64,000 bases of DNA from Phycisphaerae bacterium (GCA_016342495.1 JAEIOG010000012.1:2832-66831), one strand, 5' to 3'. Positions 6,707-47,012 are shown, counted from the first letter of the stretch. Made by a program: numbers and translations. Notes: generated from the sequence alone by a model not told the origin.

Positions 6707-6739
6707 TTTTTTTGCTCCAAAAAAGGTTATCTTTACAAT

Positions 6740-7121: not shown

Positions 7122-7159
7122 TTGATTTTTCCTTCAAAATAAGTGTTTTTCATTACAAC

Positions 7160-7190
7160 CTTATAAGGGGAAAAAAATAACACTCTGGCA
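7160..7190 (-). promoter_or_regulatory. Repeated promoter module, copy 1 (TGCCAGAGTGTTA - 12 nt - TATAAG)
   Basis: The minus strand reads tgccagagtgtta (7190-7178) and then TATAAG (7165-7160). AAGGA RBS before the ATG at 7121. Confidence 0.6.
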
Positions 7191-11917: not shown

Positions 11918-12177
11918 ATAGACAGCCTACCTAATACTCCATCATTTCCAACCCTTACCTCCCCCTCCATGATTACTGTACCTCCCTAGGGCGTGAAGCG
12001 GTAATAAAAAAATATATATTCCTAAACATAGACCATATAAGCACTTACACGCCTACAGATATATTTTTTAACTTTAATTACGCTTTACCACCCATATTTA
12101 CCACCCCTTTTAGCAATTTTAGAGCGTTCGCATTGGCAAACGCAAAATCGTTAAACCTTATATTAGGGGACAAATCA

Positions 12178-28656: not shown

Positions 28657-28719
28657 TTGCCGCTTGAATGTGATTTATCGCAGCGGTAGTATTGGGCACT
28701 AATTTTGAGGAATTCAGAT

Positions 28720-29949
28720 ATGCATATACGAAACGATGTGGTTGTAAGTAAAAATAAAAGAAGCAAAAGTCGCCCCTGGACTGTTCGCTGGTGGGGTAAA
28801 TATGATATAATTATTGAAAAGCAGCCCAGGCACAGCAAGTCATTTTCTACCAAGAAAAAGGCTGAAAAATATGCTCAATCATTAAAAGATGACATCTATG
28901 ATGGCATCTCGGTTGAACCAATGAATATAACAGTAGCTAAGCTCTGGGAGAAATATCTTAACATCGAAAAGAATAAACTTGAGCCTTCCAGTCTCAGCAA
29001 CTATCGACAAACGGCAGGCAGGCTCATAAATTATTTTGGTTCACATAGGAATATTAAATCAATTAATAAAGAACAGGCTGAAGAATTTCTCGCTGATATT
29101 AAACTCTTAGACGGCAAAGGTCCTTCGGACTCTACCAGAGCCAGGCACTTGAGAAATGCCAAGCTCATTTTCAACAAAGCGGTCGAATGGGAATATATCC
29201 GAAAGAATCCCTTTAAGGGGATTAAATTAGGCAAACCGGAAACTGAAGACTGGCGTTTTATTACCCCAGATGAGTTTAAATGCTTAATAAATGCAATTGA
29301 CTCAATCCCAATCCGAATCAAGGTTGAAAAACTGGGCTACGAACGTAAAACCATGCTCAAAGCCTTTTACTCGATTATGTATGGATGTGGTTTAAGATTT
29401 GGGGAAGCTGCCAATTTGATGTGGGACAACGGAAATATTGATTTTATTAACTCAAAAATCAATTTATCCAATAGGAATAGTAGTAAAGAGTTACCTCCCT
29501 TCAAGTTGAAAAATCATCAAGCCAGAACTATTCATGCCCCAAATTGGGTTATGGGTCCACTAAAAAACCTGAAAGAAATATCCAGTCCCAATAGTCCCTT
29601 TGTCTTTTTGAATCCAACAAGGCTGGGTTATGTAAAAGCCAAATGGCAGGAACTCAAAGAGCAGGGCAGAGAAGATAAATGGCTCAACAGTATGATGATT
29701 CTTAATACCCACAGAAAATTTCATCTTTACTGTCAGAAAGCTGGTATCATTACTAACGATAGATTGTCGGTTCATTGCTTAAGGAAATCTTATGGAACCA
29801 ATTTAGCTGACGCCGGAACTCCAGTTCATACATTAAAAGATATGATGGGGCACTCTGATATAAAAACTACAATGTCTTTTTACATCAAATCAACCGATGC
29901 TAACAAGCAAAAAGCAGTTGAAGCTTTGGAGCGGATGATGGGGGCGTAA
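28720..29949 (+). CDS. int: Tyrosine integrase (phage/ICE type)
   Basis: The track start at 28705 is an alternative start codon (TTG); the first ATG is at 28720. Catalytic boxes GLRFGEAANLMW, HCLRKSYGTNL and GHSDIKTTMSFYIK. Adjacent to the tRNA gene. Confidence 0.88.
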   Translation: MHIRNDVVVSKNKRSKSRPWTVRWWGKYDIIIEKQPRHSKSFSTKKKAEKYAQSLKDDIYDGISVEPMNITVAKLWEKYLNIEKNKLEPSSLSNYRQTAGRLINYFGSHRNIKSINKEQAEEFLADIKLLDGKGPSDSTRARHLRNAKLIFNKAVEWEYIRKNPFKGIKLGKPETEDWRFITPDEFKCLINAIDSIPIRIKVEKLGYERKTMLKAFYSIMYGCGLRFGEAANLMWDNGNIDFINSKINLSNRNSSKELPPFKLKNHQARTIHAPNWVMGPLKNLKEISSPNSPFVFLNPTRLGYVKAKWQELKEQGREDKWLNSMMILNTHRKFHLYCQKAGIITNDRLSVHCLRKSYGTNLADAGTPVHTLKDMMGHSDIKTTMSFYIKSTDANKQKAVEALERMMGA

Positions 29950-30273: not shown

Positions 30274-30346
30274 TGGGCAGAACTGGACTTGAACCAGCGA
30301 CACAGGGATTTTCAATCCCCCGCTCTACCAACTGAGCTACCCGCCC
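30274..30346 (-). tRNA. tRNA-Phe (anticodon GAA)
   Basis: The reverse complement folds by hand into a 73-nt cloverleaf: acceptor GGGCGGG/UCUGCCC, D-arm GCUC/GAGC, anticodon stem GGGGA/UCCCU with loop UUGAAAA, T-arm GCUGG/CCAGU with loop UUCAAGU, discriminator A. CCA is not encoded. Confidence 0.9.
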
Positions 30347-32373: not shown

Positions 32374-32689
32374 GTCTTTTAAAATGCCAGGGATAGATCA
32401 ATCATCATTACCACTATATGTTGCCAACTCAGCTCAGCGTTTATTCGCCCAATCTGCCAAATCCGTGTTCTATTCTTAAATTTTCCCCCTGCCAGAAAAT
32501 AATCTCACCCCCCACTCCTAATGTACTCAATTAATATGGTTGTGTCAGGGCCAATTGATTGATATAATTAAACACTCTGTGCGAACGTATAGGCACAATA
32601 TCAGCAAAATCGCTATTTGCGACGCTGTAATGCGGTTTTCCGCCTGAAAACAAAAACCGAAACTGTATTAATAATGGATAATAACGTAG

Positions 32690-33548: not shown

Positions 33549-35567
33549 ATGGATCAAGATACTCTAAAAAGATTTACGACTTCAATGATATTGTGCATGG
33601 GACTTTTGTTTGCATGGCAATATTTTAACTCCCCCAAAAAAGATGACCAGCCCGCTAAACAAGATCAGCAGCAATCTTCAACCGATACTGAAAATGCAAG
33701 CAAATCCAGCGATGACCCCGCCACATTAACCGCTCCCACTGGCCAATGGTCCCTTGTTGCGGTTCCCGAAACCAGGAATGTCACCATGGGCTCCCTTGAC
33801 AGCAAAGATGGATATGACGCCCAGATTATTTTTGATTCAGCTACCGGCTCGGTCAGCCAGGTACTCCTGAATCAATATAAATATAAAATTGATGACGAAG
33901 CTAATGGCTACCCCGTATTAAACCCCATCAAAGATGCCGATGACAATATTATCAATTCTTTCATGCTCGAAAAAATGACTATCGAAGGCCTGACCTATCC
34001 TTTTATGCTTAATGGCAAATGCTGGAAAACATCTCAGGTTACCACCGGTTCCGATGGCACCCAATCCGTTTCTTTCACCGCCACTGTTAATGATGGCGAT
34101 GGCAAAGCCGCATTAGAAATCATCAAAAACTTTTCATACAAAAAAAATGATCATGAAATAGATTTCTCCATCAAACTGGTCAATAAATCTACTAACTCCA
34201 TCGACATCAAAGGAATAAAATTCTATGGCCCCGCTGGTGTTCTACGCGAAGATTCCCGTACCGATAGCCGTGCCGTCACTTTGGGACTTTTGGATGAAGA
34301 TAATGAATTCGATACCACAAGGTCGACCGTTAAGGATCTTAATGACAAAAAAGATTTCTTTGGCACAGAAACCTTAACCCTGGAAAACAACCAGAAATTC
34401 CGCTGGTATTCAGTCGGTAACAAATATTTCGCTGCCGGCCTGAGACCTAAAACTTATGAAGACGACAATGCATTATATCTTTCGGAAGGTTCAATTCTCG
34501 CCCAGGGTTTCATCCTTAATGATCCACCCGAAAAACTCACCGGCCCAATTAATACCTTTGGCTTTTCTACCAAATTAAAACCTGCCAAAACCCTCGATGC
34601 CGGCAAAACCGTCACCTTTGATTTCGCCGCCTATGTAGGACCCGTTGAGCGTCAATTCTTCAAAGAAGCAAAATACGCTGGCCTCAATTATGACCAGATG
34701 ACAACAACCCGTTCTTGTGCTTGCTGCACATTTGGATTCTTACAGGTTGCCGTTGTGGGCCTGCTCGATGGCATCCACAAAGTCATCCCTAATTATGGCA
34801 TTGCCGTTATATTCATGGTCTTACTGGTCCGCCTGCTCTTGCACCCAATCAGTAAAAAAAGCCAGGTCAACATGATGTCAATGAGCAAACTTGGCCCCAA
34901 AGTTGAAGAAATCAAAAAGAAATATGCTGGCAACCCTCAGGAAATCCAAAAGCAGACCATGCTGATTTATCGCGAACAGGGTTTCACCCCAATTTTGGGT
35001 TGCCTGCCAATGCTTCTGCAAATGCCGATCTGGATTGCGCTATTTACCACAGTCAGCACTCATATCCCACTTCGGCACAGTGGCATGTTCCCGGCCAGCT
35101 TTGGTTGGCTCAATGACTTATCCGCTCCGGATAAACTTATCGCCTTTAGCTCAATTGGAATCCCCTCTTTTAATTTCCCATTGGTTGGCGAAGTTAATGC
35201 GGTTAATCTGTTGCCAATCCTTCTTGGTGTGGCGATGTTCCTGCAAATGAAATATTCGCCCCAGTCCAACATGCAAACTCAGACCAACCCCCAGGCTGCC
35301 CAACAGCAAAAGATGATGATGTGGATGATGCCGATTATGATGTTCGTGATGTTCTACAATGGCTCCTCTGGCCTGAACCTCTACATCATGGCCTCGACCT
35401 TCGCCGGCCTGATCGAACAACACTTTATTCGCAAACACATAAAAGAAAAAGAAGCTATGGAATCGCTTGCCGGCCCATCAAAAAATGTTATTGTTATCGA
35501 TGGCAAGGCCGCAACCAAAATAGGTGAAAAGAAAAAGAAACCCAAGCCTCCATTCAAAATGAAATAA
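33549..35567 (+). CDS. yidC: Membrane protein insertase YidC
   Basis: 672 aa. N-terminal TM, a large periplasmic domain, and the conserved C-terminal core (LLVRLLLHPISKKSQVNMMSM...GFTPILGCLPMLLQMPIWIALF...SSGLNLYIMASTF) with a basic tail. Confidence 0.9.
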   Translation: MDQDTLKRFTTSMILCMGLLFAWQYFNSPKKDDQPAKQDQQQSSTDTENASKSSDDPATLTAPTGQWSLVAVPETRNVTMGSLDSKDGYDAQIIFDSATGSVSQVLLNQYKYKIDDEANGYPVLNPIKDADDNIINSFMLEKMTIEGLTYPFMLNGKCWKTSQVTTGSDGTQSVSFTATVNDGDGKAALEIIKNFSYKKNDHEIDFSIKLVNKSTNSIDIKGIKFYGPAGVLREDSRTDSRAVTLGLLDEDNEFDTTRSTVKDLNDKKDFFGTETLTLENNQKFRWYSVGNKYFAAGLRPKTYEDDNALYLSEGSILAQGFILNDPPEKLTGPINTFGFSTKLKPAKTLDAGKTVTFDFAAYVGPVERQFFKEAKYAGLNYDQMTTTRSCACCTFGFLQVAVVGLLDGIHKVIPNYGIAVIFMVLLVRLLLHPISKKSQVNMMSMSKLGPKVEEIKKKYAGNPQEIQKQTMLIYREQGFTPILGCLPMLLQMPIWIALFTTVSTHIPLRHSGMFPASFGWLNDLSAPDKLIAFSSIGIPSFNFPLVGEVNAVNLLPILLGVAMFLQMKYSPQSNMQTQTNPQAAQQQKMMMWMMPIMMFVMFYNGSSGLNLYIMASTFAGLIEQHFIRKHIKEKEAMESLAGPSKNVIVIDGKAATKIGEKKKKPKPPFKMK

Positions 35568-35673: not shown

Positions 35674-36564
35674 CTATTTTGTATATTGAGCTTTAAGATC
35701 GTTATACATTTCCAAAGCCTGCTCTGGCTTCATGTTCTTATGTACGACCGCCTGAATCGCTTGAACCATCGCCAGCGGTGAATCGCTCATAAAGATATTA
35801 CGACCCATATCAACACCAGCGGCGCCTTGGTCAATAGCTTTATAACACATCGTCAATGCGTCAAGTTCAGGAATTTTCTTACCGCCTGCGATAACAATCG
35901 GTACCGGGCAAGCTGCAACTACTTCATCAAAACCATCTTCGATAAAGTAAGACTTAATTACATGACAGCCCAGCTCAGCTAAAATACGAGTCGCCAACCC
36001 GAAGTAGCGGGCATCGCGAACCATATCTTTGCCAACCGCGGTGATACCCATAGTTGGTATACCATAACGATTGCCCTGATTGATTAGGTATGACATATTA
36101 GCCAGTGATTCTTTTTCGCATTCGCCACCAATATAAGCCTGGGTGGTGATAATCGCTGAGTTCATTCGAATCGCATCTTCAATTTCGATACCGATGATTT
36201 CATTACTCATTTCTTTAAGAATCGAAGCACCGCTGCTGCACCGCATCGCGATTGGCTTTTTAACCGTTGGCATAATGCTGGTTCGCAAAATACCGCGACT
36301 GCACATCAAACAATCAACGTATGGTTCCAAAGGAGGAATTACCAGATCAATTCTTTCAAGACCAGTTGTTGGCCCCATAATATAACCATGGTCAAAAGCC
36401 AGCATAACTGTTTTGCCATCATTAGGATCAAAAATCTGAGCCAGGCGATTTTTCATCCCCCAGTCAAGATTGCCGCTGCCGCGCAAGAAAAAACCATTAT
36501 CCTGCATTGGCACGCCAACCGCATAATTTTTCATTCCGCCAACACTTACATCTACATCTACCAT
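35674..36564 (-). CDS. Class I aldolase, DhnA/FbaB/LsrF family
   Basis: 296 aa. GMKNRLAQIFDPNDGKTVMLAFDHGYIMGPTTGLE matches the family N-terminal signature. AAGGA RBS. Confidence 0.75.
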   Translation of the reverse strand: MVDVDVSVGGMKNYAVGVPMQDNGFFLRGSGNLDWGMKNRLAQIFDPNDGKTVMLAFDHGYIMGPTTGLERIDLVIPPLEPYVDCLMCSRGILRTSIMPTVKKPIAMRCSSGASILKEMSNEIIGIEIEDAIRMNSAIITTQAYIGGECEKESLANMSYLINQGNRYGIPTMGITAVGKDMVRDARYFGLATRILAELGCHVIKSYFIEDGFDEVVAACPVPIVIAGGKKIPELDALTMCYKAIDQGAAGVDMGRNIFMSDSPLAMVQAIQAVVHKNMKPEQALEMYNDLKAQYTK

Positions 36565-36604: not shown

Positions 36605-36649
36605 ATGGGCTATGCCCATGCTGATAAAATATCGTCGCACAGCGACCCC
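36605..36649. repeat. Dispersed hairpin repeat, L-module copy L1 (between aldolase and dhaL)
   Basis: atgggc-tat-gcccat hairpin, then GCTGATAAAAT, then gtcgc-aca-gcgac hairpin. Confidence 0.7.
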
Positions 36650-36652
36650 TTT

Positions 36653-37309
36653 TTAACTTTTTAACGCTTCCAGCATCCCTTTAAATATCAAAGACACACT
36701 TGTTGCCCCCGGGTCTTGATGGCCTAAATTGGCATCGCCGGCATTTTTCGCCCGGCCAAATCTCGCCGAGATATCCTTTGTCGATTCGGCACCGGCCAAA
36801 GCTGCTTTATACCCGGCTTCAAAGATTGTCTTGATGTCATCACTGCCAGATGCAGCTTCAATAGCCTCAACCGCCGGGATCAAAGCATCCATAATAGTCT
36901 TATCGCCAATCGTCGCCTTGGTTTGCTTCTGAATCGAAACCAAACCGCCACGAAATATTTCGCCGGTTTGTTTAGCCGCAATTTCATCGGTAGCAGGTGA
37001 TGCTTCACTCATACCCATAAACAGCGAACCAAACAGCGGACCAGTCGCTCCGCCATCAGTGCCCATAACTGCCCAGGCAATATCCATAAGTAAACTCTGG
37101 AATTGACCGGAAGTATCTTTTTCGATTGCACCGATCAGATTATTCATAGCCCGGGCCATGGTTGTGCCATGGTCGCCATCGCCACCAAAACTATCCAGTT
37201 CACCCAGCATAGCTTCGTTGGCCTTGATCTGACCAGCCGCTGCCAGTAACATTTCTGTAAACTTGCCAATATTAATTGTATTAGCCACAAAATTTCCTTT
37301 CAAACTCAC
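36653..37309 (-). CDS. dhaL: Dihydroxyacetone kinase, ADP-binding subunit DhaL (start codon uncertain, GTG at 37309)
   Basis: DAK2 signature LDSFGGDGDHGTTMARA. Confidence 0.85.
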   Translation of the reverse strand: MSLKGNFVANTINIGKFTEMLLAAAGQIKANEAMLGELDSFGGDGDHGTTMARAMNNLIGAIEKDTSGQFQSLLMDIAWAVMGTDGGATGPLFGSLFMGMSEASPATDEIAAKQTGEIFRGGLVSIQKQTKATIGDKTIMDALIPAVEAIEAASGSDDIKTIFEAGYKAALAGAESTKDISARFGRAKNAGDANLGHQDPGATSVSLIFKGMLEALKS

Positions 37310-37316
37310 AGCTAAG

Positions 37317-37364
37317 ATTCGCTTCGACCATACCGAAAAAAACCATATGAGCGAAGCGAATACC
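37317..37364. repeat. Dispersed repeat, L-module variant L2 (between dhaL and dhaK)
   Basis: 10-bp perfect arms attcgcttcg (37317-37326) / cgaagcgaat (37352-37361). Shares ATATGAGCGAAGCGAATACC with other copies. Confidence 0.65.
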
Positions 37365-37384
37365 TAAACTGTTAATTTTTATGC

Positions 37385-38383
37385 TTATTCAATTGTAAAC
37401 GCAGGACTTGAAGCCGGCATATCATAATATTTCAAAAGTTCATCATCCATACGACATACGATCATTTGGAACCCGCCCATTTCCTGAACGGTCAAAAATT
37501 CACCCGCTGCCGAACGAGCCATTTCAATGCCCTTTTCAGTCAGCATATTCTTACAATCGTTAAGAACAATATACTGTTCCATCAGAGTTGTAGAGCCTAC
37601 ACCATTAATCATAACCATAACCTTTTCGCCTTTTGCGATGCTCAAATCTTCAAGAAGAGCTGGCAGCATAAAAGCAACGGTTTCTTTTGCGGTTGGCAAT
37701 GGCATCTGACCAGAACCGGCTTCGCCGTGTTGGCCCATACCAATGATAACATCTTCTTCTGGAACTTCAGCTATGACCTGACCAGTCGATGGATGAGTCG
37801 CAGATGTTGCCGCTACAGCTAAGGTGGCCATATTGTCGGCTACTTTCTGAGCAATGCGGGTTACTTCTTCCAGATTTTCACCAGCTTCAGCGGCGGCACC
37901 GGCGATTTTGCAAACTAACAGGCAGCCAGCTAGACCGCGGCGTTCTTCTGGTTTTTCACGTGGACCGGTAGAAATATCTTCACAGGTCAAAACTTCGCTA
38001 ACCTTAATGCTTTCTTTTTCCGCCATCTGTTTGGCCATGTTGGCACTCATTACATCACCTGCGTGATTCAAAGTTATCAGCAATGTCCCAGCATCGCGTT
38101 TGGCTTTGCGAAGTGCCGCCAACAGCTTTGGAGGACCAGGAGCAGCAAAAATTTCGCCCGGTACACTGATGTCCAGCATCCCTTTACCAACAAAACCACT
38201 CAATGCAGGTTCGTGGCCGCAGCCACCTAAAGTAACTACCGCAACTTTATCTGCTGATTTAGAACTCTTCCGACAAACCAGGCCATCTTCAACGACGACT
38301 TTGTCTGCATTAGCCATCGCAAAACCCGATAGCAGTTCGCTAACTAAATTTTCCGGGGTATTAATAAATTTCTTCATTTTCAT
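37385..38383 (-). CDS. dhaK: Dihydroxyacetone kinase, substrate-binding subunit DhaK
   Basis: DAK1 signature KFINTPENLVSELL...TLGGCGHEPALSGFVGKGMLD. AAGGTG RBS. Confidence 0.88.
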   Translation of the reverse strand: MKMKKFINTPENLVSELLSGFAMANADKVVVEDGLVCRKSSKSADKVAVVTLGGCGHEPALSGFVGKGMLDISVPGEIFAAPGPPKLLAALRKAKRDAGTLLITLNHAGDVMSANMAKQMAEKESIKVSEVLTCEDISTGPREKPEERRGLAGCLLVCKIAGAAAEAGENLEEVTRIAQKVADNMATLAVAATSATHPSTGQVIAEVPEEDVIIGMGQHGEAGSGQMPLPTAKETVAFMLPALLEDLSIAKGEKVMVMINGVGSTTLMEQYIVLNDCKNMLTEKGIEMARSAAGEFLTVQEMGGFQMIVCRMDDELLKYYDMPASSPAFTIE

Positions 38384-38400
38384 AACTTCACCTTATTCCT

Positions 38401-38447
38401 GGGGTGGACTATGCCCACGCTAATAAAAACCGTCGCGAAGCGACACC
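38401..38447. repeat. Dispersed hairpin repeat, L-module copy L3 (dhaK leader)
   Basis: ggggtggactatgcccacgctaataaaaaccgtcgcgaagcgacacc, the same two-hairpin layout as L1. Confidence 0.65.
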
Positions 38448-38515
38448 TTAACTTTTCACTTTTAACTGTTAGTTTTTAACTTTCAAACTGGCATCAGTCA
38501 GTTTGAGTTATCTAA

Positions 38516-38833
38516 CTACTTTACCGGCGCCATAAACTCTATAACCGCCCCATCAATATTAACAAAAGCTATCTGTAATTCATCACTTATCGCAGTCGGT
38601 GGCAACAATACTTTTTTGCCTGCGATAGCAACATCAATATCATCAACTTTATAGGCGATATGGGGAATATTCTGAATATCTGCTGGCATCGTAGCACCTT
38701 CCTGAAAACGCAGATATTCAATTCGCAAAGGATGTTTTTCTGGGTCAGTCAGATACAGTTTCATATCTTCTGAGTACATTTCGTTTTCTTGAACAACAGT
38801 GGTTGGAACGCCAAAATGATGGAATTCAGCCAT
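38516..38833 (-). CDS. VOC/glyoxalase-family protein
   Basis: Start moved to MAEFHHFG (GAGGTG RBS with a 7-nt spacer). HHFG, HIAYKVDD and IEFM are metal-ligand-like positions. Confidence 0.6.
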   Translation of the reverse strand: MAEFHHFGVPTTVVQENEMYSEDMKLYLTDPEKHPLRIEYLRFQEGATMPADIQNIPHIAYKVDDIDVAIAGKKVLLPPTAISDELQIAFVNIDGAVIEFMAPVK

Positions 38834-39123
38834 AATCTTCACCTCTTTCATTAATGTTTTATTATCTTGCCAGTAAAATGCTCTTTTTGCGACAATTTCT
38901 GTCTGAAACACGCTTTTTTTTGAAAAACGATTATACCAGCAAAAAAAACCAATTTCAATAAAAGTATATAAAGTTTTTTTGCTACAGAGAAAACGTTTGT
39001 TTGATAGAAAAAACGGCTATATTTCATTTTATATTGTAGCCGACCGCCATATCCTTATTTACAACACTGATATAAGGATTAAATGCATCTAAGAAACCAA
39101 AAAACAATCCCCACATAAAAAAA

Positions 39124-39177
39124 CAACCCTCCCCAGAGCTGCCCCCCCAATCTAATAGATTAGATTTCCTTTATATT
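39124..39177. repeat. About 52-nt repeat, copy 1, related to the 3'UTR/terminator module at 43297-43350
   Basis: accctccccagagctgcccccccaatctaatagattagatttcctttatatt vs acccttcccagagctggcccccaaatctaatagattagatttcctttatatt. Contains the palindrome aatctaat-ag-attagatt. Confidence 0.7.
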
Positions 39178-39253
39178 AAGTCACAAAAACTAACCCTACA
39201 ACCCAAAAAAATAAGCCAGACAAGAAGACAGAACCCTGAGCCTGAGACCAGCA

Positions 39254-39478
39254 GGGTGGACAGCTTCTGCCCATGCTGATAAAATAGCAATGAGCAAAGC
39301 GAACACCGCAACCAACCAGTGTTCCAAACCCATTCCCATCAAAAGCAGAAACCAACGGAAAATCTATCCTGTCCAAAATAGTGCAATTTCAAGTTTGAGC
39401 CTAATTCACCATCGACCTGCTTCACAGGTCACTGCCACCCCGGTCATATATTAAACATCTGGTCGCGGGCACCCGACG
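39254..39478 (+). repeat. Composite repeat element, copy 1 (L-module L4 + R-module R1), about 225 bp
   Basis: Aligns along its length with 40227-40481: GCCCATGCTGATAAAAT, ATGAGCAAAGCGAACACC, CAACCAACCAG..., AAGTTTGAGCC, CACCATCGACCTGC-hairpin, TGCCACCCCGGTCATATATTA, GCGGGCACCCGACG. Confidence 0.75.
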
Positions 39479-39489
39479 ACCTAAACCAA

Positions 39490-39717
39490 TTAATAATCAT
39501 CATCTCGAAAATCTCTATCTTTTCTTGCTAATAAATATAGGATAAATCCAAGTAACACCAATAGCATTATGACTATTATTACTCCATAGACGACACCCAT
39601 CATATTTCCCCCACCCATAGTTTTGCTAATCTTGCTTCCTAACATACTTCCTATTACAAAAAGTGGTAATATTATAAGCCAAGGTCTTAATTGTTCAAGC
39701 ATTAGTATATACCTCAT
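39490..39717 (-). CDS. Small two-TM membrane protein
   Basis: 75 aa with two hydrophobic helices and a charged C-terminus (RKDRDFRDDDY). Confidence 0.45.
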   Translation of the reverse strand: MRYILMLEQLRPWLIILPLFVIGSMLGSKISKTMGGGNMMGVVYGVIIVIMLLVLLGFILYLLARKDRDFRDDDY

Positions 39718-39871
39718 CTTTGATTTGCATAATATAGAGAACCACCCAAAAAGCCACCGGCTCCTATCAGCCAGGTAGGGTAAATCATTTACCTACCCCG
39801 TTATCATGTTTTACCTCAACCGCAAACACGAAGCAGTCGGACCTACAAATACATCTACCAGCGATCGGTAG

Positions 39872-39920
39872 GGTGGGCCATGCCCACGCTGATAAGAATT
39901 ATATGAGCAAAGCGAATACC
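39872..39920 (+). repeat. Dispersed hairpin repeat, L-module copy L5
   Basis: gtgggc-cat-gcccac hairpin, then GCTGATAAGAATTATATGAGCAAAGCGAATACC. Confidence 0.7.
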
Positions 39921-40016
39921 TATAAATCACGCCTTTCACATTCAATATTATCCCCAAAATCTATATCATCAAGAAAATTTCAATCAAAATTATTATATAA
40001 CCCTTTCTCGCAAAAA

Positions 40017-40113
40017 CGCCGGGGGCCCGCAACTTGAAAATCTCAAAAAACAACCGGGGTGGCATTGACCCGCCGCAGGTGGGTCGATGGAGCAGTCGTC
40101 TCAGTCTTGAAAT
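40017..40113 (-). repeat. R-module copy in inverted orientation
   Basis: The reverse complement reads ttcaagactgag...ctccatcgacccacctgcggcgggtcaatgccaccccgg...gttgcgggcccccggcg, matching R1/R2. Confidence 0.7.
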
Positions 40114-40226
40114 AACTACCTCGGCCACAAATCTTTATCTATTTTTAGCGGTTCATCGGTTAAATCCATCCATGCTACCGCACTTGAATAATACCACTGC
40201 TATGGCAGCTCCACAAGTCACGTCCG

Positions 40227-40481
40227 ATGGGCAGCTACTCTGCCCATGCTGTTTAAAATTTTCATGAGCAACAGCGAATACCACAACCAACCAGCGCGGC
40301 AAACACATTCCCACCGCCAGCAGAATTTCAAACAGTCACCAACCAAAACCAACAGAAAATCCTGCTAATCATGTCAATGAAATGCAATTTTAAGTTTGAG
40401 CCTACATCACCATCGACCTGCTGCGCAGGGCAATGCCACCCCGGTCATATATTATCATTTTCAGGTTGCGGGCACCCGGCG
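40227..40481 (+). repeat. Composite repeat element, copy 2 (L6 + R2), about 255 bp
   Basis: See copy 1. The hairpin is atgggcag-ctact-ctgcccat. Confidence 0.75.
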
Positions 40482-40661
40482 TCTTTTGGCCCTCAGGTTG
40501 TCGCCGTCTTGTGGGTTGTCGGCGGCGATCAGTTCCAAGGCACGGCGCAGCAAGGCGGCGGCGCCGCGGGGACATTCGGCATCGAGGCAGGAGATTGCTT
40601 CGCGGCCGTATTCTTTAATTAACTTGGGCGTTCGGCCCGGCAATGTGTAATTATGCGACAT
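40482..40661 (-). pseudogene. N-terminal fragment of a DUF4145-like gene, truncated at the repeat element
   Basis: The ORF 40461-40661 starts MSHNYTLPGRTPKLIKEYGREAISCLDAECPRGAAALLRRALELI, a pattern I recognise from DUF4145 N-termini. Similarity stops where R2 begins. The patch is locally GC-rich. Confidence 0.35.
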
Positions 40662-40765
40662 GGGTTAAATATAGCCTCTCTGAGCGGTATTGTCAAGGCT
40701 CTTGTGGTTAGGTGAAAACAGTGTAAAGAAAAAGCCCGCCGATAACCGCCAACGGGCATGGGAAG

Positions 40766-41551
40766 CTATTCCGGCACGCACGCGGGATCGCCAGGACAAA
40801 TGGCTAGCCAATTACCGGCCATAATCGAGAAATCAAGCAAATCAAACTTGCAATCGTTATTAACGTCGCCGGGTAAATCGTAGTCGCAGTTATCGAGTAT
40901 CATACCCGCTGCAACAGGGTCAAAACCGGCAGGGAATGTTGTGTTGGCATTATATTTGGCTCCGGAAAAGTCGGTGTTGGATAAGTAGGCGTTGGACAAG
41001 CTGGCATTTCGCAAGTTGGCGTAGCTAAAGTCGGCGTAGTACAAGATGGCGTAGGAAAAGTTGACGTATTGCAAGTTGGCGTATTGCAAGTTGGAGCTGG
41101 ACAAGTTGACGTGGATCAAGTCGGCGTTGGACAAGTTGGCGTTGGTCAAAATGGCGGAAGGCAACTGGGCTCTCTCCAAGTCGGCATAGCGCAAGTCGGC
41201 GCCGGACAAATTAACTTCGGACAAGTTAGCTTCGGACAAGTTAGCGTAGTACAAGTTGGCGTTGGTCAAAATGGCGGTAAGCAACTGGGCGTAGGACAGG
41301 TTGGCCTTGTACAAGTAGGCGTAGGTAAAGTTGGCGTAGGTCAACTGGGCGTAGGTCAAGTTGACCCTATACAATTCGGCGTAGGAAAAGTTGACGTCGA
41401 ACAAGTTGGCGTTGGACAAGTTGGCATTGGGCCAGTTAACCCCAGGCCCCGGCGTCTTATCTGATATCTTATTACCAAAAATATCATAAATAGCTCCATT
41501 TGCCGACGCAGCGAACAGACAAACCAACACACATATTATCATTATTTTCAT
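40766..41551 (-). CDS. Secreted pentapeptide-repeat protein with a dockerin-like C-terminus
   Basis: Start moved to MKIMIICVLVCLFAASANG (signal peptide). Long A(N/D)LxY-type pentapeptide array (ANLSNANLFDVNFSYAELYRVNLTYAQL...). C-terminal DVNNDCKFDLLDFSIMAGNWL. Confidence 0.8.
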   Translation of the reverse strand: MKIMIICVLVCLFAASANGAIYDIFGNKISDKTPGPGVNWPNANLSNANLFDVNFSYAELYRVNLTYAQLTYANFTYAYLYKANLSYAQLLTAILTNANLYYANLSEANLSEVNLSGADLRYADLERAQLPSAILTNANLSNADLIHVNLSSSNLQYANLQYVNFSYAILYYADFSYANLRNASLSNAYLSNTDFSGAKYNANTTFPAGFDPVAAGMILDNCDYDLPGDVNNDCKFDLLDFSIMAGNWLAICPGDPACVPE

Positions 41552-41803
41552 AGCTCTTTGCTCATTTGAGCCACTTGCAAAACCCTCCGAAACGCAACAG
41601 GACAGCCCTGTCACTGACCTTTCGGAAAGATTCACTATTCATGCTCTTACGTAGCGAAAACACCGTCAATTGTCAATCCTAAAATTCGTTTTTTTTTTGA
41701 AAAAACCATAACCTCATTATTTATAGGTTATTATGTTCTTTTAATGTGGTATCATACCTGTAATAACTAATATGAAGTTACCCATATTCAGGAGGCAAAT
41801 GGT

Positions 41804-42000
41804 ATGTCCGCAATGGAAAATCTTGGCAGTCTGTGGAACAACATCCAAGCATGGCTCTTTCCGATGTTAGAAGACGAGTTGGGCGAACTCGATAAGAAGC
41901 ACCGGGAATTCATTGCCGTTTGCGAGTTTTGCTCGCCGCGGGCCTATCTGGAGTCCTACCGTTGGGTGGGCAATGGCTGTCCACCCGCCAGTCAGGTAGG
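41804..42000 (+). pseudogene. N-terminal fragment of a DDE transposase (IS4/IS5-like), truncated
   Basis: LWNNIQAWLFPMLEDELGELDKKHREFIAVCEF...WVGNGCPPASQ resembles transposase N-termini (LFP.LEEELGPL...G.GRPP). The ORF ends inside repeat copy L7 and no DDE domain follows. Confidence 0.4.
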
Positions 42001-42037
42001 ATGGGTAAAACTTGTTTTGCCCATGCTGTAAAATATT
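42001..42037 (+). repeat. Dispersed hairpin repeat, L-module copy L7
   Basis: atgggtaaaac-ttg-ttttgcccat hairpin followed by GCTGTAAAATATT. Confidence 0.65.
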
Positions 42038-42047
42038 AAGAGCGGTA

Positions 42048-42815
42048 ATGTTTTTACTGACAATTTTAGTCGTTGGCGTTGCTATTTGGGGTTGGCGGTA
42101 TACGGGCGACCTCAAATATGACAATCGCGTGTATGTATTTGGAATATATCACCTCATTGGTTGTCCTCTGTTAGCAGGTCTGATCGGTGTTGTATTGCCA
42201 TCTATCTACAAAAAACATTGTAAAACTTTTCTTGGTATATTGCTGCTTATCACTTTTTGCTTTTCCAGCATTATATTTCTTGCAAGTAATGATGCCATCC
42301 GCAGACGAAATGGGTTCGATAGTGACGCCCGTATACAATTGGGTTATCTTCATCGTAATTTATTTGACTATATGCACTGCGATGGGAAGATTCCAAGCAC
42401 AGATAATTGGTATGAACAATTAAAGAAGGTGGCCCCGAAAGATGATATGTGGCAATTAAGGGATGAAAATAATTTTGTGTTAAATGTCAATATTGTAGGT
42501 AAAAGTATTCAGGATATACCCGGTAATGTTATTTTACTCATTGAATGTGATAAAAATATGGCAGCTTATGGTGGGCGTGAACTATTAGATATCGAACGCA
42601 AAAAAGACAAGTATTTCACATATCAAAAAGACAGATTCATTTATTTATGTTTTATGGATGGGACAATCGCTAAATATCGTATTGCCGATGGTGCTATTGC
42701 TGAGTTTAACATTAACGATGCTATATCCTCCCCTGATTATATCAACAAGGATGGTCATTCGCCTTACATAAAAGATTCGAAATATCTTCCGCTGCAATGG
42801 GGTAGCCCAAAATAG
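42048..42815 (+). CDS. Membrane-anchored hypothetical protein
   Basis: The first ATG (42048) gives MFLLTILVVGVAIWGW. Three or four N-terminal TM helices, then a soluble domain. The track start 42012 is an alternative start codon (TTG) inside repeat L7. Confidence 0.55.
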   Translation: MFLLTILVVGVAIWGWRYTGDLKYDNRVYVFGIYHLIGCPLLAGLIGVVLPSIYKKHCKTFLGILLLITFCFSSIIFLASNDAIRRRNGFDSDARIQLGYLHRNLFDYMHCDGKIPSTDNWYEQLKKVAPKDDMWQLRDENNFVLNVNIVGKSIQDIPGNVILLIECDKNMAAYGGRELLDIERKKDKYFTYQKDRFIYLCFMDGTIAKYRIADGAIAEFNINDAISSPDYINKDGHSPYIKDSKYLPLQWGSPK

Positions 42816-42863
42816 ACTACAAAAATAGAAAAATAGGGGACAGTCACCTATTTTAGTAGGTCC

Positions 42864-42900
42864 GATGAGCAACTACTTTGCCCATGCTGTTTAAAATACC
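42864..42900 (+). repeat. Dispersed hairpin repeat, L-module copy L8
   Basis: gatgagcaactactttgcccatgctgtttaaaatacc, nearly identical to the L6 core. Confidence 0.65.
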
Positions 42901-43144
42901 TTTCCTAACCAAGACTTTCCACTAATGGCACTATCGACAACGATAAACATTATCATAATGAATGTTTTATAAAATAACAATAATTATCTCAGAGGGTGGC
43001 ACCGCCAGCAAAAAAATCACAAAACCATTCAAATAATCATTATCTCCATCCCAATCAAATCCGCGAAAATCCGCTCAATCCGTCAAAATCCGTGTCCTAT
43101 TCTTATATCCCACCCCGCCACTAAAACTAATTCTCTTTAATTCA

Positions 43145-43242
43145 GCCGGGTGTCCGTGGTTTGCCTCAAATCTCGACATATATCTGGGGTGGCATCGGTC
43201 TGCGCTGCAGCCCGATGGTGAATCCGTCTCAAACTTAAAATC
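43145..43242 (-). repeat. R-module copy in inverted orientation
   Basis: The reverse complement reads aagtttgagacggattcaccatcgggctgcagcgcagaccgatgccacccc...cacggacacccggc. Confidence 0.7.
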
Positions 43243-43283
43243 CCCTTAAATTAACGCTCGCCACAGGTATGCTGATTGCTAAA

Positions 43284-43318
43284 TAAAAAAAAGGGCCAAC
43301 CCTTCCCAGAGCTGGCCC
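43284..43318 (-). terminator. Intrinsic terminator of the 43350-45215 gene
   Basis: Minus-strand RNA GGGCCAGC...GUUGGCCC (one G-U pair) followed by U8. Confidence 0.7.
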
Positions 43319-43349
43319 CCAAATCTAATAGATTAGATTTCCTTTATAT

Positions 43350-45215
43350 TCAATTGTTAACAACACCTAACAAGGGCAATTCATAGGTCGCCAATTTCTG
43401 TTCCAGCAATGCCACACCCTTCTTATTCATCTTCTCAGAAGTCTGAACAAAAATGGCATCTGCGGCATCAACCACACTGCCGCCATCCTGGTCATGCATA
43501 ATCGCCTTTAGTGCACTTGGACAATAAACCACGATGGTATCAAACTGGCGACGCAGTTTCAGCCAACCGATTGTCATGCCAGCCTTATCGGCGGCTTCAC
43601 CCCGAACAACTTTGCCCGCTGGCATAAAGCTCAAACCAGCCAGACTGGTCGCTGCATAAGTCTGTTCAGCTTCGATATCGCCCAAAATCCATTGGCGATA
43701 ACCTTTGTCAGTATCTACATCGAAAACTTCTGATAATTCATTATTTTCAGCTTCGATAATCAGTATGTTTTTTCCTTCTTTTGATAATGCAATAGCCAGG
43801 TTAACCGTTGAAACCGGGGAGCCATAGCCACTAATTAAAATAATCGGACTTACCGCAGAACCTAGCTTTAATACCTGTTTGGCCATGGTTTCATAGTCAC
43901 CCACCAAACCAGTTGGAATATCACCCTGCGGTGCCAAAGCCGCTCTGGGGCTAAGGCTTTTGCCCTTTTGCACCATATAAATTTTATTACCCATCGGGGC
44001 CAAAGTCCAACCCAGAGCCATCCCCAACAAGGTCAATACAATCAGTGCCATATATTGAATAATGCTAATTTGAGAATATGGGTTAAGCGGGCTTAAAGCC
44101 ATTTCCGGGCGAACAGCGTCGGTTAATCTGGCCAACTCTTCAATATCTGCCTGTTCTTCATCAAACTTGGCGACAGCTGTTTCGATTTCACCCTGCAGCG
44201 TATCACATTCCGCCTGAGCGTTTTCTTTTTGACCTTTGGCGGCGATTATAGAGCTTTCCAGACGTCGTATTTCCTGCTCTTTGGCAGTGCGAAGAATTTC
44301 AGTTTCTCTTTCATATTGTTGGCGAAGTTCATCAGCAAGCTTTTCTTTCAGTTCAGTAGCGATAGCCAAAATCTGTTCATCAATTTTACCTCTGGCAATA
44401 GTAAGCTCACGCCGTTCTACAGCAATTGTAGCTAAGAGCAGATTATCTTCTGCCTGGCCAGCTTTGATATCCAGCTCTGCCTGTCTATCGCGATATTCCT
44501 GCTGTTTTTTTAATAATTTCTTGGTATTTTTGTCATTATTAATGAGTTTCTGCACCGTCTGCTGAACATATCCCTGGTAAGCCAACCCATCCTTATTTTC
44601 AATAGCCTCGCCCAGCTTCAATGCTTCAGCGGCCAGCATTTCCTTAACGCCTTCTTGAAGCTCTACATACTTTTCCTGTCTTTGGACAAATTCAGTTTTA
44701 GCTTCCAACTGCCTTTTGCTCAGTTCGATTTGCCCCTGTCGCTGTTTTTGAATTTCCTGCTTGGCCAGCAGATTCTTCTGCATCCGGTTGGCATTGTCAT
44801 GATCCATGTAATGCAGCTTATAATTATCCAGCACCTCAATAAACTTTTGTTTCTGCTGAATAAATAAATCATTATAATGCCTCAAAAAACGATTTGGACT
44901 TTTGTCATAACGCACAGAAAACTGCATCGCGATATCCAATGCTCGCTCGGATGGATCAGGCTTGATTTTATAACTGACCTTCATTTCCGAATGCGACAGT
45001 TGACCATTGACAATTTCAGTTTCCAATGCCTGCTTTTCTTTTTCCAGAAATGCGTCCCAGTCCATACCTTCAGATTCGGCAAATGTCGCAGAAGTAGATA
45101 ATACCTCGTCACTAGCCATCAACCGGTCTATAATTGAATAACCCAAAAGTAATAATACTATGCCACACATAATGGCTATGATAAAACGTTTGATTCTGTT
45201 TAATGTTCCTATCAT
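43350..45215 (-). CDS. Polysaccharide co-polymerase (Wzz/GumC-like) with a degenerate BY-kinase-like C-terminal domain
   Basis: 621 aa. N-terminal TM, a long coiled-coil periplasmic region, a second TM, and a C-terminal ParA/MinD-like fold (ILISGYGSPVSTVNLAIALSKEGKNILIIEAE) that lacks the Walker A lysine. Confidence 0.7.
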   Translation of the reverse strand: MIGTLNRIKRFIIAIMCGIVLLLLGYSIIDRLMASDEVLSTSATFAESEGMDWDAFLEKEKQALETEIVNGQLSHSEMKVSYKIKPDPSERALDIAMQFSVRYDKSPNRFLRHYNDLFIQQKQKFIEVLDNYKLHYMDHDNANRMQKNLLAKQEIQKQRQGQIELSKRQLEAKTEFVQRQEKYVELQEGVKEMLAAEALKLGEAIENKDGLAYQGYVQQTVQKLINNDKNTKKLLKKQQEYRDRQAELDIKAGQAEDNLLLATIAVERRELTIARGKIDEQILAIATELKEKLADELRQQYERETEILRTAKEQEIRRLESSIIAAKGQKENAQAECDTLQGEIETAVAKFDEEQADIEELARLTDAVRPEMALSPLNPYSQISIIQYMALIVLTLLGMALGWTLAPMGNKIYMVQKGKSLSPRAALAPQGDIPTGLVGDYETMAKQVLKLGSAVSPIILISGYGSPVSTVNLAIALSKEGKNILIIEAENNELSEVFDVDTDKGYRQWILGDIEAEQTYAATSLAGLSFMPAGKVVRGEAADKAGMTIGWLKLRRQFDTIVVYCPSALKAIMHDQDGGSVVDAADAIFVQTSEKMNKKGVALLEQKLATYELPLLGVVNN

Positions 45216-45386
45216 TTTATTTTCTCACTTGATGATAACACTAATAATTGACAGCTTAGGCCCGATAATATGTACGTCATAGCCATTATAATACATTAAT
45301 TAGAATTATCCAACCCCACAAATTAACTATTATTGTAATTAATTCATTAAAACTGTTAATTTAGGTAAGATGATAGGTTTTGGTAA

Positions 45387-45974
45387 TTATTGGATTTGCT
45401 GTTGTTTGTGCCAAAGTATGTCTTCAGTTACGGTTTGATCCATAATCGCGGCAATGAAATCCATGCTGACTTGATATCGCACGGGATTATTAACAAAAGA
45501 AGTTGGCACTTCAGTTGGGGTTATGGGTGCTTCTGATTCTATAGGTAGGACCCGATCGAGAGTGGTATCACCAGCAGGCTCGTTTGCGGTAATTACGGGG
45601 ATAGATTCTGGGGTTTCGGGTGAAATTTGAGGTGAAAAAGTTGCATTTTCGGTAGATTTTGGTCGATTTTGTGCATTTTCGGGACTTTTCGTGCCCGAAA
45701 CTGGAGCGTTTTTGCCCTGATTTTCGGCTAAAATCTCCATATCCGCAACACTATTAAGATAGTCTCGTTCCTGCATCGAGACCAGTTCTTCATCGCTATC
45801 ATCGTTAATTTCATCATCTTGTTGCATATTCGATGGCTGGGCAAGTGGGTCATCTGCGGTTAGCTGACCCTGATTTTTCATTTGTTCCAGACATGCCAAC
45901 ATAAAATCACGGCGTGCCTGCTCGATTTCTTTTTGCAGTTTGCCAGCGCGTTGATTTTTGACATTATCTTGCAT
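45387..45974 (-). CDS. Hypothetical acidic / Pro-Thr-rich protein
   Basis: 195-aa ORF upstream of, and co-directional with, the co-polymerase gene. Composition suggests intrinsic disorder. Confidence 0.45.
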   Translation of the reverse strand: MQDNVKNQRAGKLQKEIEQARRDFMLACLEQMKNQGQLTADDPLAQPSNMQQDDEINDDSDEELVSMQERDYLNSVADMEILAENQGKNAPVSGTKSPENAQNRPKSTENATFSPQISPETPESIPVITANEPAGDTTLDRVLPIESEAPITPTEVPTSFVNNPVRYQVSMDFIAAIMDQTVTEDILWHKQQQIQ

Positions 45975-46139
45975 CTGTCCCCTCGGTTTTCAGCATAAAA
46001 ATCTAATAGTTATTTTTTTTTGAGCTTGTTTGGCCACTATTATAAAAAAATTTGCTCAAAAATACAATAGTTGATATAGTAAAGAGTTCATATTGGGCAT
46101 ATAAACAACGTAATTTGCCAAATTAATCAGGAATTTGCC

Positions 46140-47012
46140 ATGAAATCATACGAAATTGTATTAGCAGCTATAGATAAAGGTATTGGGCATGGGCCAATAC
46201 AAGATGTTTTCTTTGCTGGCAGCAAAACACAACCTGCGGTAATGAGTTATGTGGTAAATTTCCCGCGGTTATCAATGCCCATAAGCGGTTTCCATGAAAT
46301 GGAAATCGAGCAGAATGGCGAATCGGTGGTGATCACTCCGGGTGCGGGTCAGGCTATATTTGTCGGGCCAAACTGCTGGAATAAACCTACCTGGGATAAA
46401 AAATGTGAGGTTTTGACATTTTTGTTCGGGAAAAAACAAACTGGGGTGAGCCTGGTACGGTCGAACGGACATGGTTTGGAAGATATTACCGCAACTAAAA
46501 TCGCGATCCGCAAGCCCTTAAGCGGAGTTGGCGGCAATATTTTACAGACAATTATAGATTTACACAAAAAACACGCAGATTTTGGTGCCTTTGGCCAAAT
46601 GATAGAAGTATTGATTCATTGCTGTCGGATTGAGGTTGAAGAAAATCTGGCTAAGATGAACGATAATCAGAAAAGCAAATCATATTATCTACTGGAAGAT
46701 ATTTGTGCTTATATGCAGGAACATTTTCAATATGATATCACAAGGGATTATGTAGCCAAACAGTTTCGGATAACACCGAATCATCTGTCACGAATATTTA
46801 AGACCGAAGGGAATATGAACTTTTCAGATTACCTGACTTTTGTGCGGATAGACCGTGCAAAATTCATGCTGAGCCGTTATAATATGACTCTGGCGGAGAT
46901 AGCCCAGCGATGTGGATACCTGGATGCGGCGTATTTTTGCCGGGTATTTAAAAAGGTTACCAAGAGGACGCCAAATCAATATAGGGTAGAGTTTAATGAG
47001 AGAGAGAGATAG
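46140..47012 (+). CDS. AraC-family transcriptional regulator
   Basis: C-terminal double HTH (ITRDYVAKQFRITPNHLSRIFK...LAEIAQRCGYLDAAYFCRVFKKVTKRTPNQYR). Confidence 0.85.
   Translation: MKSYEIVLAAIDKGIGHGPIQDVFFAGSKTQPAVMSYVVNFPRLSMPISGFHEMEIEQNGESVVITPGAGQAIFVGPNCWNKPTWDKKCEVLTFLFGKKQTGVSLVRSNGHGLEDITATKIAIRKPLSGVGGNILQTIIDLHKKHADFGAFGQMIEVLIHCCRIEVEENLAKMNDNQKSKSYYLLEDICAYMQEHFQYDITRDYVAKQFRITPNHLSRIFKTEGNMNFSDYLTFVRIDRAKFMLSRYNMTLAEIAQRCGYLDAAYFCRVFKKVTKRTPNQYRVEFNERER

Follow-up and report, generated by a model that had tools for sequence, protein, structure and literature searches.

The repeats considered here lie in a 64,000-nucleotide stretch of a 71.9 kb contig from the genome of an uncultured Phycisphaerae bacterium (GCA_016342495.1, JAEIOG010000012.1:2832-66831; hereafter the window), in which eight hairpin modules of one kind (L) and four of another (R) all fall within about 6.7 kb, between 36.6 and 43.3 kb. 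With a little better than even confidence, we read this cluster as a mosaic similar to the bacterial interspersed mosaic elements (BIMEs), composed of two small, non-coding and non-autonomous families of the repetitive extragenic palindrome (REP) type or of the type of REP doublets forming hairpins (REPINs), and spread by a hairpin-recognising transposase encoded elsewhere. The initial annotation had described a dispersed family made of two modules, and neither part of that description was retained: the 12 modules are all clustered, and L and R are two separable, unrelated families, L standing alone in six of its eight copies and R being found in other genomes as inverted doublets that no L accompanies. 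L is best read as a REP-like unit, and R as a REPIN-like inverted doublet or as the inverted ends of a small palindromic element. To our knowledge, good descriptions of such families exist for Proteobacteria, but no more than sketches for the Planctomycetes-Verrucomicrobia-Chlamydiae (PVC) group.

The proposal that the repeats resemble REPs or miniature transposable elements with inverted repeats (MITEs) agrees with our results, as the copies are hairpin-bearing and non-coding, lie between genes, are absent from the corresponding spacers of relatives, abut truncated genes and match no Rfam family, and as R covaries across genomes. A coding reading of the L-R composites was rejected because their short open reading frames (ORFs) differ in frame and content; several spurious short ORFs of the region (e.g., 39290-39454 and 40396-40650) are accounted for by the repeat units.

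Copies and architecture of the L and R units

All eight L modules listed in the initial annotation were recovered by a profile search, far beyond chance (E from 4e-13 to 4e-8), as were all four R modules (E < 1e-31), and the search of the whole 64 kb revealed no further copy of either. Likewise, an R-core covariance model run on the window with the filters off retrieved the four known R copies alone. The L core GCCCAYGCTGWTWAAAT has seven matches at three mismatches or fewer, all on the plus strand, against a mean of 1.4 in shuffled sequences, which never reach seven; the motif ATGAGCAAAGCGAATACC has three matches in the window against 0.06 expected; and a three-block R pattern has exactly four matches (39409+, 40410+, 40020- and 43147-) and none in the shuffles. 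The variant L2 has no GCCCAYGCTGWTWAAAT core, yet it scores E=6e-9 with the L profile. The two families are distributed differently between the strands, the eight L modules being all on the plus strand while R is divided into two forward and two inverted copies, as previously described.

An L unit runs from a 5' tag through a stem-loop and an A/T-rich tail of 11 nt (GCTGATAAAAT) to either ATGAGCAAAGCGAATACC (L2, L4, L5 and L6) or a second hairpin, GTCGC-NNN-GCGAC, followed by A/T-rich heptamers (L1 and L3). The base of the stem, (A/G)TGGGC...GCCCA(T/C), is conserved and its tip is variable, consisting of a 3-nt loop or of an extra self-complementary extension (CAG-CTACT-CTG; TAAAAC-TT-GTTTTG), so that stems measure 6-11 bp and loops 2-5 nt. 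The tag is GTAGG before L5, L7 and L8, TTAGG before L1 and GCAGG before L4, and L3 and L6 are untagged. In L2, the first hairpin is replaced by a stem of 10 bp, formed by pairing with the ATGAGCGAAGCGAAT motif. The copies are related to different degrees: 38405-38456 (L3) aligns to 36606-36661 (L1) at 80%, and L8 is 92% identical to L6 over 38 nt. In an alignment registered by hand on the stem, 94% of the cells of the L hairpin are paired and two of 10 pairs have changed on both sides (the basal one from A-T to G-C, and that at position 8 from G-C to A-T); the mismatches favour neither strand.

The R unit is an arm of about 100 nt whose core, a hairpin of 10-12 bp with variable sequence, stands between the invariant CCATCG and TGCCACCCCGG. 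The four copies have in common AAGTTTGAG, CACCATCG, the hairpin, (A/C)TGCCACCCCGG, an A/T-rich stretch and GCGGGCACCCGRCG. The invariant single-stranded flanks are GGGGTGGCA ... GATGG, and the freely covarying stem that they enclose retains, close to its base, a constant G.A mismatch as well as a U.G/C-G position. The proportion of paired cells is 84% on the strand called forward in the initial annotation versus 93% on the complementary strand, since the C.A mismatches of the former become G.U or G.T in the latter, and all four copies fold at lower energy on the complementary strand. Within the window, two of 12 R pairs have changed on both sides.

Twice, as the initial annotation had noticed, L and R are joined in a composite, and the two composites are homologous from end to end (40228-40481 versus 39257-39478, 72% over 255 nt, E=2e-34). 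The initial annotation had also proposed a search for target-site duplications at the composites; the flanks of C1 and C2 are unrelated, and neither terminal inverted repeats nor target-site duplications were seen at either. In addition, R3(-) and R2(+), with L6 between them, make up an inverted pair, complementary at 81% over 62 nt and with a spacer of about 270 nt, and the pairing continues a few bases outward.

The earlier observation that three copies sit within the dha operon holds (L1 between dhaL and the aldolase gene, L2 between dhaK and dhaL, and L3 just upstream of dhaK). Three related dha operons show the sequence dhaK, a spacer of 39-54 nt and dhaL, the latter overlapping the aldolase gene by 8 nt, and no L module was found in these three; in the window, the dhaL-aldolase spacer measures 88 nt and is occupied by L1. 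The segment common to L1 and L3 (36606-36661) covers the stop codon and the last two codons of dhaL, and the DhaL C-terminus reads ...EALKS, versus ...EGVQQHG in relatives. L units have clearly remodelled the dha operon, altering its spacers and changing the DhaL C-terminus. The nearest DhaK from another genome is 70% identical, the collections holding no sister genome. A 105-aa gene found upstream of dhaK in relatives was considered as an equivalent of its window counterpart and rejected, the two not being homologous.

Copies also adjoin truncated genes, again as first reported: L7 at a fragment of a DUF772 insertion sequence (IS), and R2 at a DUF4145-like ORF. The left edge of L7 (41993|41994), 2 nt outside its GTAGG tag, is the exact end of a 90% nucleotide identity to the IS transposase gene, and homologous transposases continue with ...CPPAS-RLALCKAF... 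where the window enters L7. A clean insertion of L7 into the IS was rejected because the IS does not resume downstream, and this edge is a truncation junction. An inverted L4-like hairpin at 41967-41986 was also discarded as a repeat copy, being native transposase coding sequence (WVGNGCPP) conserved in homologues. Together, these observations show that copies entered the intergenic spacers of a conserved operon and sit at the edges of gene fragments.

Table 1. Repeat units, neighbouring genes and related fragments (positions in the window unless another locus is named)
Feature	Position	Strand	Description
L1	36597..36661	+	Tag TTAGG; hairpin ATGGGC-TAT-GCCCAT 36605-36619; tail GCTGATAAAAT 36620-36630; second hairpin GTCGC-ACA-GCGAC 36634-36646; A/T-rich end with dhaL stop codon; between dhaL and aldolase gene
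L2 (variant)	37317..37380	+	Hairpin ATTCGCTTCG 37317-37326 / CGAAGCGAAT 37352-37361; ATGAGCGAAGCGAATACC 37347-37364; between dhaK and dhaL
L3	38400..38480	+	Hairpin GTGGAC-TAT-GCCCAC 38404-38418, one A.C mismatch; tail GCTAATAAAAA; second hairpin GTCGC-GAA-GCGAC 38432-38444; A/T-rich heptamers; directly upstream of dhaK
Composite C1	39251..39478	+	L4, C/A-rich middle, R1
L4 (in C1)		+	Tag GCAGG; hairpin GTGGACAG-CTT-CTGCCCAT 39256-39274; tail 39275-39285; ATGAGCAAAGCGAACACC 39290-39307
R1 (in C1)	39383-39478	+	Core from CCATCG 39409 to TGCCACCCCGG 39443
L5	39868..39920	+	Tag GTAGG; hairpin GTGGGC-CAT-GCCCAC 39873-39887; tail GCTGATAAGAA; ATGAGCAAAGCGAATACC 39903-39920
R3	40012..40113	-	Left arm of inverted pair with R2; plus-strand core CATTGACCCGCC-GCA-GGTGGGTCGATG, 12 bp
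Composite C2	40222..40486	+	L6, C/A-rich middle, R2
L6 (in C2)		+	Hairpin ATGGGCAG-CTACT-CTGCCCAT 40227-40247; tail 40248-40259; ATGAGCAACAGCGAATACC 40264-40282
R2 (in C2)	40383-40486	+	Right arm of inverted pair with R3
L7	41994..42034	+	AG and tag GTAGG; hairpin ATGGGTAAAAC-TT-GTTTTGCCCAT 42001-42024; tail GCTGTAAAAT
L8	42855..42896	+	Tag GTAGG; hairpin ATGAGCAA-CTACT-TTGCCCAT 42864-42884, one A.C mismatch; tail GCTGTTTAAAAT
R4	43145..43245	-	Plus-strand core hairpin CATCGGTCTGC-GCT-GCAGCCCGATG
L core GCCCAYGCTGWTWAAAT, matches	36614, 38413, 39269, 39882, 40242, 42019, 42880	+	Pattern search, three mismatches or fewer
yidC	33549-35567		
DeoC-type aldolase gene	35674-36564	-	
dhaL	36653-37309	-	
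dhaK	37385-38383	-	
DUF4145-like truncated ORF	40461..40661	-	Neighbour, not repeat; last codons from R2 outer end
Pentapeptide-repeat gene	40766-41635		
IS transposase fragment	41567..41993	+	Neighbour, not repeat; left end and first 63-64 codons; DUF772/PF05598 N-terminal domain
Tyrosine-kinase-like gene	43350-45215		
IS-left-end fragments	window 41567-41993; L252 712-1138; L253 5363-5763; L254 6514-6943; L255 154-325		

R doublets in other Phycisphaerae

Loci outside the window carry three-digit handles. In L003, from another Phycisphaerae metagenome-assembled genome (MAG), a spacer of 18 nt separates two mutually inverted R cores, and the genes on either side are divergent (CGGGGTGGCAGT-GGCAAGC-GGC-GCTTGCC-GATGG and CCATCG-GCAAAC-TCGC-GTTTGC-CGCTGCCACCCCGG). 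L246, a 93% relative, has an equivalent doublet at the equivalent place, where two substitutions turn the imperfect base CAGT/GATG of L003 into a perfect CATC/GATG. Two more doublets were obtained from a third lineage (L247-L251) by a covariance-model scan of the kind suggested in the initial annotation, run with the R core on the window and other loci without pre-selection by pattern; the pattern had missed both. Their stems are entirely different (GGCAAAC/GTTTGCC and CTCAAGG/CCTTGGG) and they have the left extension GTGAAAAYATCCTGGCA in common; the first doublet of L247 forms a palindrome that spans about 200 bp, each arm measuring about 90 nt. In every doublet the GTGGCA ends face outward, as in R3/R2 of the window, the doublets fold as long hairpins (z-scores of -6.3 for L003 and -3.2), and no target-site duplication is visible at the ends of any of them. 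The natural form of R is the inverted doublet, which other Phycisphaerae carry and which the window shows as R3(-)...R2(+).

Pattern searches were less informative: among the matches listed for a loose R pattern on genome contigs (at least 118), only L003 is real, the rest being chance or coding matches, many of them to one conserved gene motif. The strict three-block pattern, which is blind to core-only units such as L003, gave four chance matches on metagenome contigs, and scans of viral sequences gave nothing convincing.

With the relatives added, the covariation of the R stem is strong. In a plain MAFFT alignment of seven units, 92% of the cells are paired and four of 11 pairs have changed on both sides, a score reached by none of 500 shuffles; the model-fitted alignment of 12 rows, which leans towards the model and in which one row is the reverse reading of a palindromic match, gives 92% paired, six of 11 pairs changed on both sides and again 0/500 shuffles. 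Selection on the R hairpin, or its mechanistic regeneration, is nonetheless well supported. The compensatory stem changes claimed initially stand to this extent: the quoted stems are all present and the covariation exceeds chance for R once other genomes are considered, but in the window alone it is modest.

The locus of L003 can be followed further. L256, with about 60% identity in the neighbouring protein, holds a degenerate R version at the orthologous place, inside the outer inverted repeat GGAAAACACAAAA...TTTTGTGTGAC that L003 also has, while at the orthologous locus of L247 the R element is not there; therefore, the R element at this site is old and was vertically kept in some lineages. 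The region concerned (L003 5930-6178 and L256 9780-10000) lies upstream of a conserved gene of 210-213 aa of unknown function, and its blocks CATGCTAACAGA, GGAAAACACAAAA, TTTTGTGTGAC and GAAAGGGTA are kept across the ~60% protein identity, an unusually strong conservation for intergenic DNA. Separately, another small element was observed at L247 15230-15500, whose ends, TGTAGGTAGACC ... GGAACCTACCTACA, are inverted and which contains a further inverted repeat, GTCATTCCGACC ... GGTCGGAATGAC; it adjoins an R doublet upstream of a Na/Ca exchanger gene, and a related piece occurs at the corresponding place of L256 (12200-12345).

Such doublets could also be taken for MITEs, with the R arms as the long terminal inverted repeats of a DDE cut-and-paste IS and L as an unrelated passenger or a second MITE. 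The length and complementarity of the R3/R2 match, which extends slightly outward, the large palindrome of L247 and the identical ends facing outward in every doublet all speak for this explanation, which we nevertheless regard as unlikely: no target-site duplication accompanies any doublet, no transposase lies between or near any R pair, an inverted-repeat partner is missing for the single R arms and for the L-R composites, and an internal hairpin that varies and yet is compensated suggests recognition of a fold rather than of a duplex end.

Known repeat systems and competing readings

Under the REP/REPIN reading that we prefer, a transposase encoded elsewhere in the genome would read the folded hairpin together with its conserved single-stranded flanks. 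The likeliest enzyme would be of the HUH/Y1 type (RAYT, TIRYT or IS200/IS605-like) and would act on single-stranded DNA. Enzymes of this type produce neither target-site duplications nor, where the unit is asymmetric, terminal inverted repeats, and the composites, with their unrelated flanks and neither of these marks, look like HUH-type products. Some copies may instead stem from local duplication. Inserted units would be transcribed in the operon mRNA and could fold in it; if this influenced termination or the stability of the mRNA, the influence would be a putative by-product.

Searches for known families gave no match to either unit. At the gathering score, Rfam had a single match in the window, a tRNA, and at E up to 5 nothing overlapped L or R between 36 and 44 kb, which answers the Rfam search advised by the initial annotation; blastn against plasmid and phage collections also gave no match. 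The statement that the window holds no transposase partner is right for Y1, TnpB and DDE enzymes and incomplete otherwise, since the DUF772 fragment and two tyrosine integrases (170-1084 and 28705-29949) are present. Integron attC sites were rejected, as L and R have no RYYYAAC ... GTTRRRY core sites; moreover, what lies between L1 and L3 is a conserved operon and not a set of cassettes, and the distances to the nearest tyrosine recombinases are 7 kb and 36 kb.

The closest published parallels are the REPINs (PMC3116915) and the GTAG-type REPs surveyed in E. coli and Pseudomonas, both mobilised by RAYT (Y1/HUH) transposases; the latter are defined as imperfect palindromes with a stem of 5-13 bp and a loop of 2-20 nt, bearing in most members an unpaired GTAG (GYAG/GTRG) tag, and showing variable self-complementary loops and alternative complementary stem residues (PMC3733652). 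Such REPs number from tens to thousands per genome and are spread throughout it. The stem and loop lengths of L fall within this definition, L shows the same kinds of stem and loop variation, its sites after ORFs and inside operons are alike, and it occurs as single units without terminal inverted repeats or target duplication. In contrast, L carries the conserved A/T-rich tail of 11 nt, absent from the surveyed families, and R lacks a GTAG tag, its stem being bordered by a conserved flank on either side. R resembles REPINs in its inverted, short-spaced doublets (18 nt in L003), which fold into a long hairpin and persist vertically, whereas the L copies are all single and in one orientation; no RAYT gene was seen in the window. 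Part of the published REPIN work reports that these doublets persist vertically for very long times, which fits the L003/L256 locus.

Two further kinds of repeat can be likened to ours. TIRtrons carry Y1 transposase genes (TIRYT) between long inverted repeats, some with the motif GGGGWSAS, and families of such repeats occur in dimers or clusters; composite repeats of P. putida and P. fluorescens join a degenerate GTAG unit to an unrelated stem-loop (PMC3733652). The R arms are likewise long, arranged in inverted pairs and furnished with self-complementary tracts, and, going by the published description alone, R GGGGTGGC fits GGGGWSAS at seven of eight positions, a short and imperfect match; however, no tyrosine (Y1) transposase gene lies between the R arms. 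The L-R composites resemble the joined Pseudomonas units, again by their description alone.

Among other mosaics, the BIMEs of E. coli and the dRS3/Correia clusters of Neisseria interleave different short repeats and linkers between operon genes. Our cluster shares with them the interleaving of repeat types, the insertions between operon genes and the potential for promoters, terminators and RNA hairpins, but the sequences are unrelated, and L and R have no counterpart of the terminal inverted repeats and TA duplication of Correia elements. Single-strand transposition of the IS200/IS605 type has a known strand bias, with which the single orientation of L would fit; palindrome-associated transposable elements (PATEs) of this type also have asymmetric ends with subterminal hairpins and neither terminal inverted repeats nor target duplication; their left and right hairpins are similar, and they insert 3' of a fixed tetra- or pentanucleotide. 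However, the left and right hairpins of our composites are unrelated to each other, there is no fixed target tetranucleotide 5' of L, no TnpA/TnpB gene occurs in the window and no Rfam RNA family matches. Finally, Rickettsia palindromic elements are inserted in frame inside genes and translated; L1 also reshapes the end of a coding sequence (the stop and last two codons of dhaL), but it replaces the extreme C-terminus only.

Several observations weigh against the reading of L and R as mobile REP/REPIN-type families. The covariation of the L hairpin is weak, its score being matched by 13 of 500 shuffles, the GTAG tag is exact in three of seven L copies, and L was not found in 2.17 Mb of other loci examined, so that it is known from one genome only. 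All copies are in the one cluster, together with a duplicated terminator segment (39115-39194 and 43283-43371), and because of this duplication part of the copy number could be due to local copying. For none of the copies was an empty site found at high identity. No Y1_Tnp domain was detected among the window ORFs of at least 150 aa or in a six-frame scan of 38900-40870, nor any TnpB or DDE transposase gene in the window; RAYT genes, which their repeats usually flank, are typically single-copy and may sit elsewhere in a genome. Finally, the long vertical retention of the R doublet fits REPINs but fits a conserved cis-element equally well.

Indeed, the R doublets, and perhaps L, could be conserved cis-acting structured elements (a regulatory site, or a hairpin that processes or stabilises mRNA) rather than mobile DNA. 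The locus of L003, L246 and L256 keeps the element or its remnant with the outer inverted repeat across about 60% protein identity, the L003 and L247 doublets are in the promoter regions of divergent genes, and L1-L3 are inside the operon transcript, each right after a stop codon. Nevertheless, the neighbouring genes are unrelated between sites, the window copies are among gene fragments and in both orientations, L247 has no element at the locus of L003, and the dha operons of relatives work without L, so we give this possibility rather little credit. A related suggestion, to which we give marginally less, is that the R unit is the folded recognition site of an enzyme not yet described in Phycisphaerae (a recombinase or nuclease that is structure-specific, or an HUH protein that has been domesticated), or a lineage-wide structured regulatory element. 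If this were true, the doublets would be long-kept functional parts of the chromosome and not selfish repeats.

The initial annotation also offered a small-RNA family as an alternative, which our results disfavour. In its most explicit form, the L-R composite would be a small-RNA gene in which L provides a promoter with an extended -10 (TGnTAAAAT) and R a structured 3' domain and a terminator. L4 does match a sigma-70 promoter with TG at 10 of 12 positions (TGGACA-17-TAAAAT), T runs follow the outer ends of R2 and R3, and the hairpins covary. However, a plausible -35 box is present in L4 alone and the region holds 18 promoter-like sites against 17.6 expected from shuffles, so that L was rejected as a promoter in general; folded as RNA, the composites show no unusual stability (z-scores of -2.1 and -0.7), and R1 and R4 have no T run. 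In addition, the R hairpin is better paired and lower in energy on the strand opposite to a transcript from L, R is found in both orientations and mostly apart from L, and no Rfam family matches, all of which makes a small-RNA gene very improbable. Least probable of all is an origin of the copies only by repeated local segmental duplication and decay in an unstable region, without transposition or function, which their confinement to 6.7 kb, the duplicated terminator-plus-palindrome segment and the gene fragments would suit, but L1, L2 and L3 are separated by the intact, conserved and unduplicated dhaK and dhaL, the R core recurs at unrelated loci in other genomes, and the copies are sharp-edged with unrelated flanks.

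Genomic setting and significance

The genes around the cluster are ordinary chromosomal ones (Table 1). Several repeated stretches were observed in and next to it. The two copies of the duplicated segment are 81% identical and comprise the terminator of a 621-aa gene with a perfect palindrome AAATCTAATAGATTAGATTT; upstream of the 39115 copy there is no gene, and the stem of this copy has decayed. This duplicate is evidence for segmental duplication inside the repeat cluster. The stretches 43032-43125 and 32400-32499 are 69% identical and both contain AAATCCGTGTYCTATTCTTA, one of them adjoining R4 and the other lying just past a sigma-54 activator gene. In the pentapeptide-repeat gene, the repeat scan found a 15-nt periodic DNA repeat at 40926-41485 (24 overlapping copies), which is ordinary for this family.

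The left end of the DUF772 IS, with the first 60-130 codons of its transposase, recurs on metagenome contigs, each fragment being broken at a different point, and a paralogue of the IS (JEZ07_16500, 81%) is present in the source MAG. These left-end fragments may be a miniature IS derivative in their own right; at the break points of the fragments in other metagenomes, neither L nor R was found.

Farther from the cluster, the GC skew flips at about 45000-46200, from between -0.1 and -0.2 on the left to between +0.15 and +0.24 on the right, irrespective of gene strand. This flip, to the right of the cluster, marks a replication-strand switch or an inversion breakpoint. The window contains neither a cluster of DnaA boxes nor a dnaA gene, and a link to a replication origin was rejected (20 boxes found versus 21 expected).

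On the left, positions 1-30350 have a low GC content (0.34-0.38 versus 0.41-0.46 beyond) and end at a tRNA gene (30274-30346, minus strand) that adjoins the tyrosine integrase at 28705-29949. This part contains three DNA methylase genes (12133-13746, 13821-15044 and 17529-19088), a helicase-like gene of 1106 aa, an MZB-domain gene (19509-24610) and a gene of 1092 aa without family match, and it looks like an integrated defence island. It also holds three copies, 70-80 nt long and 71-79% identical, of a segment CATTTTTTTTGCTCCAAAAAAG...AATAACACTCTGGCA (5855-5933, 6704-6774 and 7109-7190), each at the start of a small minus-strand ORF without family match; the segment looks like a promoter or leader common to a few paralogous genes.

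For annotation, recognising L and R as repeats explains the odd dha spacers, the altered DhaL C-terminus and several of the spurious short ORFs. The repeats are of a known kind and involve no new mechanism; what is new is a covarying R-core motif common to several Phycisphaerae lineages, together with the remodelling of an operon by L. The R-core model can be searched for throughout the Phycisphaerae, and could serve both the hunt for a cognate enzyme and, as a marker, the study of genome dynamics in these uncultured bacteria.

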